NCBI GenBank assembly: GCA_965215015.1 | Contig: OZ244042.1 | Span: 4,832,001-4,896,000, forward strand | Source: Candidatus Poribacteria bacterium | GTDB lineage: Bacteria; Poribacteria; WGA-4E; PCPOR2b | Reading direction: 5' to 3' | DNA: 64,000 bases | Shown: positions 61,815 to 64,000 of the stretch, piece after piece | Layout of the letters: the number at the start of each line of letters is the position of its first letter | How positions within the stretch are numbered: position 1 is the first letter of the stretch | Translations under genes and position numbers: made by a program | The notes under the pieces: generated by a model | What the model saw: the letters and a program-made list of their open reading frames with translations, nothing else | Told to the model about the DNA's origin: nothing | The model's database searches: none

Positions 61815-63602
61815 TCAATTCATTGTTTCTGCCAACGCTTTTGCCTGCTCAACCTTTTCACGGATTAAATCGCAGCCCCCCTGCCAGAAGGTAGGCGAAG
61901 CGATGTCAATTCCCATGTCAGCAACCAATTGGTGCGGCGTGGCAGAGCAACCCGCGCTCAACAGATCGAAATAGCGCGGCACAAACGATTTGCCGTCACG
62001 TTGATACTGTGCATAGAGTGAAAGCACCAACAATTCGCCGAAAGCATAAGCATAGACGTAAAATGGCAGCTGGAAAACGTGCGGGATATAGAGCCACCAC
62101 CACTGATGGTCTTCACCCAACGATAGCGAGTCTCCAAACATCTCCTGCATCACCCGCTGCCAGAGTTCACAGTAGGCTTCTGTGGTTTGTTCACCCTTTT
62201 CGCGGCGCAGACGGTGTGCTTCCTGCTCAAAACGGTACATGGCGATTTGGCGAAACACGGTAGCAAAGATGTCTTCGATTTTGCCACACAGCAGTGCCAA
62301 GCGTTCCTCCGACGATTCTAACGTAGACTGCAACTGGTCAAATACCAACATCTCTCCGAAGGTGCTCGCTGTCTCCGCTAGTGGCAAGACTGGGTGATAG
62401 TTGAGCAAGCTCTGCTTACTAGCGAGTACATCGTGAATACCGTGTCCCAACTCATGTGCCAGAGTCATCACGTCACGCGGCTTGCCGGTGTAGTTCATGA
62501 AAACATAGGGATGCAAGTCAGGCGTGACTCCCGCGCAATAGGCACCGCCCCGTTTGCCCGCACGGAGTTCAGCGTCAATCCAGCGTTTACTAAAGAACGG
62601 TTCTGTTATTTCCGCTAACTCTGGTGAAAACCTGCCAAAAGCAGCCATCACCATGCCTTGTGCTTCATCGAACGGGATATTACCGCGGTCCCCAAGCAGC
62701 GGGGCATATCGGTCATAGTGAGTCAACTCTTTTAACCCCAACAACTGCCGCTTGAGGTGATAATAATCGGCGGCGATATGGTAGTTATCCGCGCATACAT
62801 CCGACACGGTGTTGACCACTGCTTCCTCCACTTCATTGTCGAGATGCCGTGCTGCTTCGGGCGACGAGTGCCCTCGCAAGCCGTCCAGAATCTGCTTTTC
62901 GTGGAGGAGTGTATTGAAGATGAAGGTCAACACATGCGCGTCCTGCTTGAGCGTATCTGTCAAGGCGGTAGCGGCGGCTTGACGCGTTTCGCGATCGGGG
63001 TTATAAAAATGCACCAACAACTCGCTTTGAGTCAGTTCTTCATCGCCCATCCGAAAGGTTTGGCGTGACGTGATTTCAGTAAACAGTCGTCCAAAAGCGC
63101 GCCCCCTTGTATTCGCTGTCTCCTCCAAAATCTTCTCTTCTGCTTCGCTCAAATGGTGCGCTGCCAATGCCCGTTCATGTTCGAGATAATGTCGGTAAGG
63201 TGCGAGTTGCGGGGCCTCAATGATGCTGTCAAAAGTGTCTTGTGGAATCTGGCCGATTTCGAGGTCGAAGAAAATCAAGTGAGTTGCCGCTGCTGAACCA
63301 ATCTCACGCGTTCTCTGTAACAACGCCCCCCGTCGGGCGTCCGCGGTGTCAGTCGAAAATAGCAGATTCGCATAAGACCCCGGCTTGTACTGTGCCGCCA
63401 TCAAGACTTCATAATCGCTAAGTGCGCTGCATAACAGATCCGCGGTTACATCTGCTGAGGCGATGCGTTCTTTATACTTCTCCTCAAACTTTGCCGCTTG
63501 ATCGACCATCGAATTTAAGTCGGTATCTAACCGCGAATCATCAATACCATCGTACAGATCCGACAAATCCCATGTCGGTAAACCGTTTGTATTTTCACTA
63601 CT
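61815..63602 (-). CDS. M3B oligoendopeptidase F family, exon 2 (start presumably upstream of the intron)
   Basis: LPTWDLSDLY N-terminal motif, KRGGAYC, TLAHELGHGIH, AETAS.F.E, FYVYAYAFG. The frame runs to the intron boundary at 63602 with no start codon before WDL. Confidence 0.88.
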   Translation of the reverse strand, partial: SSENTNGLPTWDLSDLYDGIDDSRLDTDLNSMVDQAAKFEEKYKERIASADVTADLLCSALSDYEVLMAAQYKPGSYANLLFSTDTADARRGALLQRTREIGSAAATHLIFFDLEIGQIPQDTFDSIIEAPQLAPYRHYLEHERALAAHHLSEAEEKILEETANTRGRAFGRLFTEITSRQTFRMGDEELTQSELLVHFYNPDRETRQAAATALTDTLKQDAHVLTFIFNTLLHEKQILDGLRGHSSPEAARHLDNEVEEAVVNTVSDVCADNYHIAADYYHLKRQLLGLKELTHYDRYAPLLGDRGNIPFDEAQGMVMAAFGRFSPELAEITEPFFSKRWIDAELRAGKRGGAYCAGVTPDLHPYVFMNYTGKPRDVMTLAHELGHGIHDVLASKQSLLNYHPVLPLAETASTFGEMLVFDQLQSTLESSEERLALLCGKIEDIFATVFRQIAMYRFEQEAHRLRREKGEQTTEAYCELWQRVMQEMFGDSLSLGEDHQWWWLYIPHVFQLPFYVYAYAFGELLVLSLYAQYQRDGKSFVPRYFDLLSAGCSATPHQLVADMGIDIASPTFWQGGCDLIREKVEQAKALAETMN

Positions 63603-64000
63603 GTAAGTATAGGTAGATTCCTCACGGAATTTTCCCTACTTCCAAACCGTGCGTGCGACTTTCACCGCACACGGCTTTCACCGTCAGTATACTGATTATC
63701 ATTGTAAACAGGTAAAGAGTTCGTAGGCAGACTAAGCTCTGGCAAATACCCTCAATGATAATCTCTGCCCTGCTTGCTTTTGATTCATGTCAACTAATAG
63801 GAAGGAGTTGTCATGGCAAAATATGGTTGACGCGCATCTGTCCTTAATTGCTTATGAATCAATTTCTGCATTCTGACTTGGACATGCTTGGGGATAATAC
63901 CCTACCTGTCCGCCTCTCCCGTATCTTCTCATGGGAATGAGATGACTTAGGGACTATCTTGTTCTCGCAATATGCACTTCACGAATGATTTAGGTGCTGA
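63603..64000 (-). ncRNA. Group II intron (IIB-like), 3' part; continues beyond the window
   Basis: Minus strand DV: AGC triad, CGTGT GCGGT-GAAA-GTCGC, AC bulge, GCACGGTT. DVI with GTGA tetraloop and bulged A 8 nt from the terminal AC. Confidence 0.9.

Follow-up and report, generated by a model that had tools for sequence, protein, structure and literature searches.

In bacteria, group II introns are as a rule selfish retroelements, found outside host genes and reliant on their own reverse transcriptase/maturase. The element described here is a group II intron without an open reading frame (ORF) in pepF, an oligoendopeptidase F gene at the edge of a 64,000-nucleotide stretch (the window) of the genome of a Candidatus Poribacteria bacterium (contig OZ244042.1, positions 4,832,001 to 4,896,000). 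Members of the IIB1 start/stop-codon lineage (Michel 2007), such as Avi.groEL and EcKTE56.groEL, encode a reverse transcriptase (RT) and are described as carrying, close to the 5′ end and at the base of domain I (DI), an insertion of 300-700 nt (PMC12584367). Avi.groEL, itself a IIB1 intron, is reported to self-splice in vitro without its RT (PMC12584367). In Thermosynechococcus elongatus, a host of CL/IIB1 introns, the ORF-less TeI3 families are mobilised and spliced by the intron-encoded proteins (IEPs) of TeI4 introns, and one family homes into an IS200-family element (PMC2882425). C.te.I1 of Clostridium tetani, an ORF-less intron of a surface-layer protein gene in an IEP-free genome, shows robust self-splicing in vitro and is presented in a 2015 review, for which ORF-less copies in genomes without such a protein were a great rarity, as the sole known exception (PMC4424553; see also PMC3919590). 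It is known for alternative splicing within a gene. ORF-less introns in dnaN of Trichodesmium erythraeum are spliced by the maturase of the RIR intron (PMC12584367).

The single-copy pepF is interrupted, precisely where its start codon meets codon 2, by a complete ORF-less group II intron. The window breaks off inside the intron, and the sequence beyond the edge was read on the same contig of the source genome (G000, a single contig of 5.94 Mb, 98% complete, in which the window is G000:C1:4832001-4896000). Positions past 64,000 are given below as window equivalents; a position in the fetched locus, L003, equals the window position minus 61000. The features of the gene and its intron are as follows.

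64347..63603 (window equivalent; L003 3347..2603; G000:C1:4896347..4895603), minus strand: group II intron, 745 nt, delimited by its GTGCG 5′ end and by full-length alignment with 15 ORF-less siblings
63603..64000, minus strand: the part of the intron inside the window, its 3′ 398 nt (intron nt 348-745)
64360-64357 (window equivalent, beyond the window), minus strand: Shine-Dalgarno (SD) sequence GGAG
64350-64348 (window equivalent, beyond the window), minus strand: start codon ATG
61815..63602, minus strand: pepF exon 2, from codon 2 (AGT) to the stop, 595 codons, M3B oligoendopeptidase F by Pfam
63564..63566, minus strand: first in-frame alternative start, TTG at codon 14, from reading of the frame
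63644..63677, minus strand: domain V (DV; intron nt 671-704), from the Rfam model RF00029, with the AGC triad, a GAAA loop and 14 of 14 predicted DV pairs formed
63605..63641, minus strand: domain VI (DVI), whose branch-point A is bulged and stands at 63610 (8 nt from the 3′ end, intron nt 738), from RF00029 and the alignment

Upstream of the intron the minus strand reads ...TTATTAAGGAGATAATCATG followed directly by GTGCGATCTTGTG..., that is, an SD sequence, a 6-nt spacer, ATG and then the group II 5′ end. A first-pass annotation, made from the letters of the window, had predicted an intron 5′ end after a ribosome-binding site and ATG upstream of the window; GTGCG indeed stands 347 nt past the edge, directly after AAGGAG-N6-ATG. 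The coding content of exon 1 is ATG alone, with the SD before it. Across both junctions the sequence runs AAGGAGATAATCATG, then the intron, GTGCG...CCTATACTTAC, then AGTAGTGAA, and its 3′ end is ...UAC at window 63603. Both termini fit the group II rule (5′ GUGYG, 3′ AY), with GTGCG at L003 3347 and ...TTAC at window 63603. Exon 2 opens in the pepF frame with SSENTNGLPTWDLS, and splicing would join ATG to AGTAGTGAA (ATG to AGT AGT GAA), a predicted junction that would restore the ancestral frame and leave the codon count unchanged. No ORF of at least 60 amino acids lies within the whole 745 nt, as the annotation had held for the portion in view; one 64-residue plus-strand frame (L003 2422..2616) overlaps only the last 14 nt, and the minus strand between DV and the window edge has no ORF of at least 30 amino acids.

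Comparison with orthologues fixes the insertion point. The pepF product matches the Pfam families Peptidase_M3 (E 1e-52) and Peptidase_M3_N (E 3e-16). In a survey of 29 genomes of the taxonomic family, G000 included, pepF is present in 28 and is single-copy in the source genome at E ≤ 1e-50. At 26 of the 27 other loci, GGAG, a spacer of 6-7 nt and GTG, ATG or TTG run directly into AGC or AAC, then ACT GAA, with no intron; the 27th (L068) was missed by the N-terminus pattern. Because the start codon and the next codons are contiguous in these 26 intron-less orthologues, the insertion sits at the boundary of codons 1 and 2.

The fold of the ribozyme supports this delimitation. On the minus strand, window 63679..63603 aligns with the whole of RF00029, the DV-DVI model (64 bits, E 4e-11; gathering score 40), where the annotation had placed DV and DVI ending at 63603. 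The other group II covariance model applied to the locus, a check that the annotation had proposed, is RF02012 for domains I to IV, which scores 31.8 bits inside the intron, below its gathering score of 34. DNA relatives of the intron occur in 27 of 61 genomes searched, G000 included, and full-length ORF-less relatives of 711-765 nt from seven genomes are 65-69% identical to it. A consensus fold from 16 full-length copies has 180 pairs, 89 of them with a compensatory change; the pepF intron forms 166 of the 180, and in 32 of those 166 both bases differ from the commonest pair; one of the 180 is gapped in it. Covariation is also seen in the DVI helix, where, for instance, 9 of the 16 copies have CG at pair 783/813, 6 have GC and 1 has UA. 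On this model the ribozyme looks structurally intact. Elsewhere in the alignment, the copy at L010 (G016:C40) has a 16-nt tandem duplication of the DV 5′ strand (CGGTGAAAGCCGTGTG) at columns 722-737.

The two exon-binding sites (EBS) of the intron match the translation signals of the gene that it interrupts. EBS2, ATCTCC (intron nt 214-219, window-equivalent 64134-64129), is perfectly complementary to GGAGAT, which holds the SD, and EBS1, CATGATT (intron nt 305-311, window-equivalent 64043-64037), is perfectly complementary to AATCATG, which is spacer and start codon. Together they give 13 contiguous Watson-Crick pairs with the 5′ exon. Homologous loops covary with the 5′ exon in sibling subfamilies (TTAGG/CCTAA, TTGGG/CCCAA, CTAGCA/TGCTAG and CGCACTT/AAGTGCG), and only 5-10 pairs form between the pepF intron and the exons of the 15 siblings. 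By a lenient metric that accepts any register, 13 bp is attained as well at 97 of 20,000 random genome sites, so the weight of the case for pairing with the intron-binding sites (IBS) of the exon rests on the homologous loop positions and not on the pair count. A cross-control of intron/exon pairing has a mean of 7.6 and a maximum of 14 and is blurred by near-identical exons among subfamilies; the fixed-column comparison was off by one register for the siblings.

Reading of the pepF frame through the intron bears on how PepF can be made. A TAG lies in frame within DVI, 11 codons upstream of the 3′ splice site, and between it and TTG 63566 (codon 14) the frame has no ATG, GTG or TTG, which confirms the annotation's remark that DVI holds an in-frame TAG and that no start precedes the WDL residues. 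Neither ATG nor GTG nor TTG occurs in the 3′ tail of the intron, GAGGAATCTACCTATACTTAC, whose ATA is out of frame. Unspliced RNA read from the exon-1 ATG gives a 17-residue peptide, MVRSCVTMCNAGSIPAW, and then a stop; this 17-codon ORF runs into DI. A truncated PepF could come from unspliced RNA only through TTG codon 14, and direct reading of the bases before it (CCGACATGGGAT) finds no SD of the GGAG or AGGA type at a usable distance. Full-length PepF cannot be translated without splicing, as the annotation had proposed, and since exon 1 holds just SD and ATG, with no in-frame bypass start before codon 14, PepF is probably made only after the RNA splices.

Taken together, it is likely that pepF carries a structurally intact ORF-less intron between its codons 1 and 2 and that PepF is made only after splicing. 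In its folded form the pcm-pepF transcript would have its SD and AUG held by EBS2 and EBS1, and the ribosome-binding site would be covered while the precursor stays folded; two transesterifications would then join AUG to AGU AGU GAA, and only after that could ribosomes make PepF. With no reverse transcriptase or maturase in the genome, splicing would be RNA-autonomous or aided by a host factor. The probable origin of the intron is retrotransposition out of a clade in which EBS2 recognises SD-like AGGAG sequences. Most likely the element is a selfish insertion that has become fixed, is tolerated and splices constitutively, and it is not a proven regulator; most simply read, such an insertion has a target specificity that happens to coincide with a translation-initiation region. 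The interpretation of the first-pass annotation, splicing-gated expression with a possible conditional switch, is partly supported.

The host gene is intact and evolves under purifying selection (dN/dS about 0.05). In all 20 genomes of the genus, which are also the sample of the survey of non-synonymous to synonymous substitution (dN/dS), pepF has 595 stop-free codons. G000 against its 19 orthologues gives dN/dS of 0.034-0.066 (other pairs: median 0.044, range 0.022-0.107), and for the terminal branch of the G000 gene a rough value of 0.076 is obtained, with dS about 0.20. The intron is present at the pepF site in contigs from 4 runs of 4 studies; one of the runs holds a divergent strain, with 33 differences in 942 nt (about 3.5%), that keeps the intron and has a contig across the 5′ junction. 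These contigs are DNA or of unstated kind, none recorded as RNA, and speak to alleles, not to splicing. No joint of exon 1 to exon 2 without the intron is seen in the contigs of the 4 runs, and the insertion is fixed in the strains sampled.

Relatives of the intron place it among known classes. In four congeners, related introns contain open frames 583-602 residues long; the one frame scanned, P0001 from G002, has RVT_N, RVT_1, GIIM and HNH domains, and its closest solved relative is the TeI4h RT (PDB 6me0_C, E 1e-91). TeI4h is classed as CL/IIB1 (PMC2882425), and we infer by this kinship, the copy itself being without an IEP, that the pepF intron is akin to the TeI4h-type CL/IIB1 introns of Thermosynechococcus. 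GIIM is found in 8 of the 29 family genomes searched (G000 counted, with none). In one congener of a single contig, 97% complete (G005), six near-identical full-length ORF-less copies (e.g. G005:C1:5481285-5482026) occur with no GIIM match, so IEP-free carriage recurs in the genus. The G005 copies look like recently mobile introns without a detectable maturase. Within the pepF intron no IEP remnant is found by tblastn with a related IEP (best E 0.79, wrong strand); what the annotation had taken for a decayed IEP N terminus (VRMQKLIHK...) is conserved ribozyme sequence of the J2/3 to domain III region.

The source genome holds traces of other copies. The annotation had suggested a search for siblings at other start codons, and there is one, broken: at G000:C1:4711187-4711278 (L006 187-278), the leader, SD and GTG of an IS200-like gene (AGGAGAAACCGTG) are followed by a piece of a sibling intron's 5′ end. 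This piece, a 35-nt match to the 5′ end of the pepF intron at 89% identity, stands directly after AAAGGAGAAACCGTG. The 57-nt leader before it also opens an IS200-like Y1 transposase gene (Y1_Tnp, PF01797, E 4e-11), and four intact intron-less copies of that gene in three other genomes read ...AGGA[G/A/T]AAACC[G/A]TG followed by AAC.... In the broken copy, a deletion has joined about 30 nt of a sibling intron to what encodes the C terminus of the transposase. The second RF00029 match in the genome is an orphan DV-DVI remnant on the plus strand (G000:C1:4715769-4715853; L006 4769-4853; 46.7 bits) with two mispaired DV positions. An intact hyuB-like gene lies some 210 nt downstream of it, and the 5′ intron piece lies 4.5 kb upstream; a second intron interrupting hyuB was considered and rejected, as hyuB has its own SD and ATG, like 17 orthologues. 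The surrounding locus is rearranged: REP-like palindromes flank the IS200-like leader at L006 187-278, a partial duplicate of the hyuB N terminus lies between the two intron remnants (L006 329-613), and L006 773-1106 and 1153-1404 are a tandem duplicate of the leader and N terminus of a 1057-residue gene with a C-terminal sorting-type tail.

A close parallel to the pepF site comes from another genus. At G025:C640 an 812-nt ORF-less intron follows AAGGAGAAAACAATG (AAGGAG-N6-ATG), and its EBS2 ATCTCC and EBS1 CATTGTT match its own exon; its exon 2 is a 21-codon ORF only. A quick tree groups the pepF intron, this copy and two G022 copies in one clade with support 1.0. The first position of exon 2 is A at pepF, at the IS200-like site and at G025:C640, and T in most siblings.

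Target preference was surveyed with a covariance model, R1, built on the first 125 nt of 24 sequences, which replaced motif patterns that had recovered 6 and then 21 rows (10 loci missed). Full-length 5′ ends are detected by R1 in 65, G000 included, out of the 151 genomes of the order that were searched. The 95 junctions read were chosen, not random (30 R1 loci, 37 of 39 extra fetches, 10 pattern-search junctions and 18 full-length siblings); the two fetches dropped had no canonical 5′ end at the expected place. Among 74 distinct 5′-exon ends, 21 have GGAG, AGGA or GAGG starting at -15 to -9, against 6.1% of random G000 positions. A start codon occupies -3 to -1 in 5 of the 74 (6.8% versus 5.2% at random), and motif and start codon coincide in two, the pepF intron and G025:C640, against 0.32% at random. 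Since the copies are related to one another, the binomial values of 2e-9 and 0.024 overstate the enrichment. One sub-clade has an SD-like IBS2; insertion after a start codon is not a rule of the family. The idea that the family generally targets start codons was rejected on that near-random rate and on the members found in tRNA genes and other conserved sites.

Other insertion sites are varied. Among the members at L163, L164 and L170 (G105, G101 and G111) and L168 (G119), insertion is after ...GCGCCTGTAGCTCAGGGGA[T/C]AG, which resembles a tRNA D arm, or, in one case, after ...GGTTCGACTCCCA, which resembles a T arm; G119 has at least 17 equal-scoring copies. At L207 (G004:C1:2981106) an intron 5′ end stands after ...CGTTATTGGGAAACGGGTGAATCTGCGTG, sequence from the EBS2 region of a different copy in this family, forming a twintron. 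The 5′ exons at L206 (G003:C1:2952856) and L156 (G012:C102:133436) end in AAGGAGGGATTATGA and AAAGGAAGGATATGG, which places the intron one base past an SD-led ATG. A search with the 20-nt 5′ end of the pepF intron's sub-lineage gave one match each in genome and metagenome contig collections, both set aside as chance (an unrelated coding gene; similarity lost after 20 bases).

Two further features lie upstream of pepF, beyond the window.

64537 (window equivalent): stop of pcm
64361-64508 (window equivalent; L003 3361-3508), minus strand: repeat of about 148 nt resembling a miniature inverted-repeat transposable element (MITE), between the pcm stop and the pepF SD, from repeat matches

All 20 genomes of the genus contain matches to the MITE-like repeat, and G000 has 43 of them. 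The repeat begins GTGCGAG and could pass for an intron 5′ end. With the repeat set aside, 13 bases, GGAGATAATCATG, stand where orthologues have GGAGAATATTGTG-type sequence. A scan of the pcm-pepF interval gives one promoter-like site, which overlaps the SD, against 2.2 expected by chance, and no terminator.

Several observations count against a pepF intron that splices. A six-frame hidden Markov model (HMM) scan of the 98%-complete single contig for GIIM (PF08388) and RVT_1 (PF00078), with controls positive in 3 of 14 known genomes, gives no match in G000; a related IEP as tblastn query finds none there (best E 0.55); and most bacterial group II introns are described as requiring their own IEP for splicing in vivo (PMC12584367, PMC2882425). 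In the intron, 13 of the 180 consensus pairs are unformed, compared with 0-5 in close siblings and 12 and 15 in two other divergent copies; three of the 13 are, as judged by eye, alignment register shifts in the EBS1 hairpin, and the remaining ten fall at the DI base (two), in DIc, DId and DII (one each) and in DIII (five). EBS3/IBS3, δ-δ′ and other tertiary contacts were not located in it. The insertion may have come at any point on a pepF branch of dS about 0.2, so that purifying selection after it is not strictly established; the strain changes in exon 2, among the differences listed, which leave out 15, affect 8 codons synonymously and 6 non-synonymously and were not drawn on. The lack of an RT or maturase, the unformed pairs and the already wrecked second copy would suit an intron that no longer splices in vivo after maturase loss, with pepF silent, or truncated at its N terminus from TTG codon 14, and becoming a pseudogene. 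Such decay seems unlikely, given 595 intact codons, a dN/dS of 0.03-0.07 (terminal branch about 0.08) like that of intron-less orthologues, a perfect 13-bp EBS-IBS match, a canonical DV, DVI and 5′ end, 32 pairs kept through double changes, retention in a strain about 3.5% diverged, and a codon-14 TTG with no SD. Help in trans, which the annotation had raised, might come from a maturase encoded outside the assembly on a plasmid, phage or strain-variable island, much as TeI3 is driven by TeI4 IEPs. Related genomes do encode IEPs of 583-602 amino acids, GIIM occurs in 8 of 29 family genomes, and ORF-less siblings are multi-copy in IEP-bearing genomes such as G014 and G004; yet G000 is one contig, 98% complete, in which neither the HMM scan nor tblastn finds a maturase, and G005 keeps six ORF-less copies with no GIIM match. 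This explanation is very unlikely.

Regulation is a separate matter. Splicing, and hence release of the SD and AUG, might respond to Mg2+, temperature, stress or ribosomes on the 17-codon leader ORF and so gate PepF. The geometry permits it (IBS2 is the SD, IBS1 the spacer and AUG), the 17-codon ORF does run from ATG into DI, the intron is fixed in all strains sampled, and splicing-modulated expression of host genes is reported for a few bacterial introns (PMC12584367). The target-site specificity of a selfish element would, however, give the same anatomy: 21 of the 74 sites have an SD-like IBS2, most of them not at verified gene starts, and the site of the G025 relative precedes only a 21-codon ORF. 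A conditional switch of this sort is accordingly very unlikely. It is quite unlikely, too, that EBS2 and EBS1 serve as a mimic of an anti-SD and an anti-start codon, in which the same 13 bases would guide DNA targeting to initiation regions and sequester the pepF SD and AUG until maturase-independent splicing, as a protein-free ribozyme switch tied to self-splicing conditions or to ribosome traffic on the leader. The constitutively splicing selfish insertion remains the preferred reading. If the intron does splice, pepF would offer a natural test case for protein-independent or host-factor-dependent splicing of a bacterial group II intron, a test case for ribosome binding versus intron folding on the same 13 bases, and an example of an intron clade with SD-like targets landing at gene starts. 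A limited literature search (titles and abstract openings), which does not prove that none exists, found no report of a group II intron that uses EBS2 and EBS1 to pair with the SD and start codon of its host gene.

Set beside the described systems, the pepF intron shares features with each. Like members of the IIB1 start/stop-codon lineage, it sits exactly at a translation signal, the boundary of codons 1 and 2, of a conserved chromosomal gene. It differs in its total length of 745 nt and in the absence of both a 5′ insertion and an RT; over its first 125 nt it can be aligned, with no column out of step, to 23 ordinary members of the family, and the lineage is set apart by description only. 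The link to the Azotobacter groEL lineage that the annotation had drawn is not supported on one of the features reported to define that lineage, since an insertion of 300-700 nt is absent from an intron of 745 nt in all. As in dnaN of T. erythraeum, an ORF-less intron lies in a conserved gene, with host expression dependent on splicing (a prediction in the case of pepF); there, a related ORF-carrying intron supplies the maturase from the same genome, whereas none was found in G000.

The T. elongatus introns come close in kinship and in history. The IEPs of the pepF intron's kin are nearest to the TeI4h RT, ORF-less derivatives of about 700-800 nt have proliferated with diverged EBS, and an IS200-type target recurs in the broken G000 copy. 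In T. elongatus, however, the driver IEPs reside in the same genome and most copies are intergenic, while G000 has no IEP and a single intact copy inside the start of a conserved gene. C.te.I1 provides a likeness by description, with no sequence compared: it and the pepF intron are each independent and ORF-less, in a protein-coding gene of an IEP-free bacterial genome. What distinguishes the pepF intron from C.te.I1 is its position at the codon 1/2 boundary, with EBS2 and EBS1 covering the SD and AUG.

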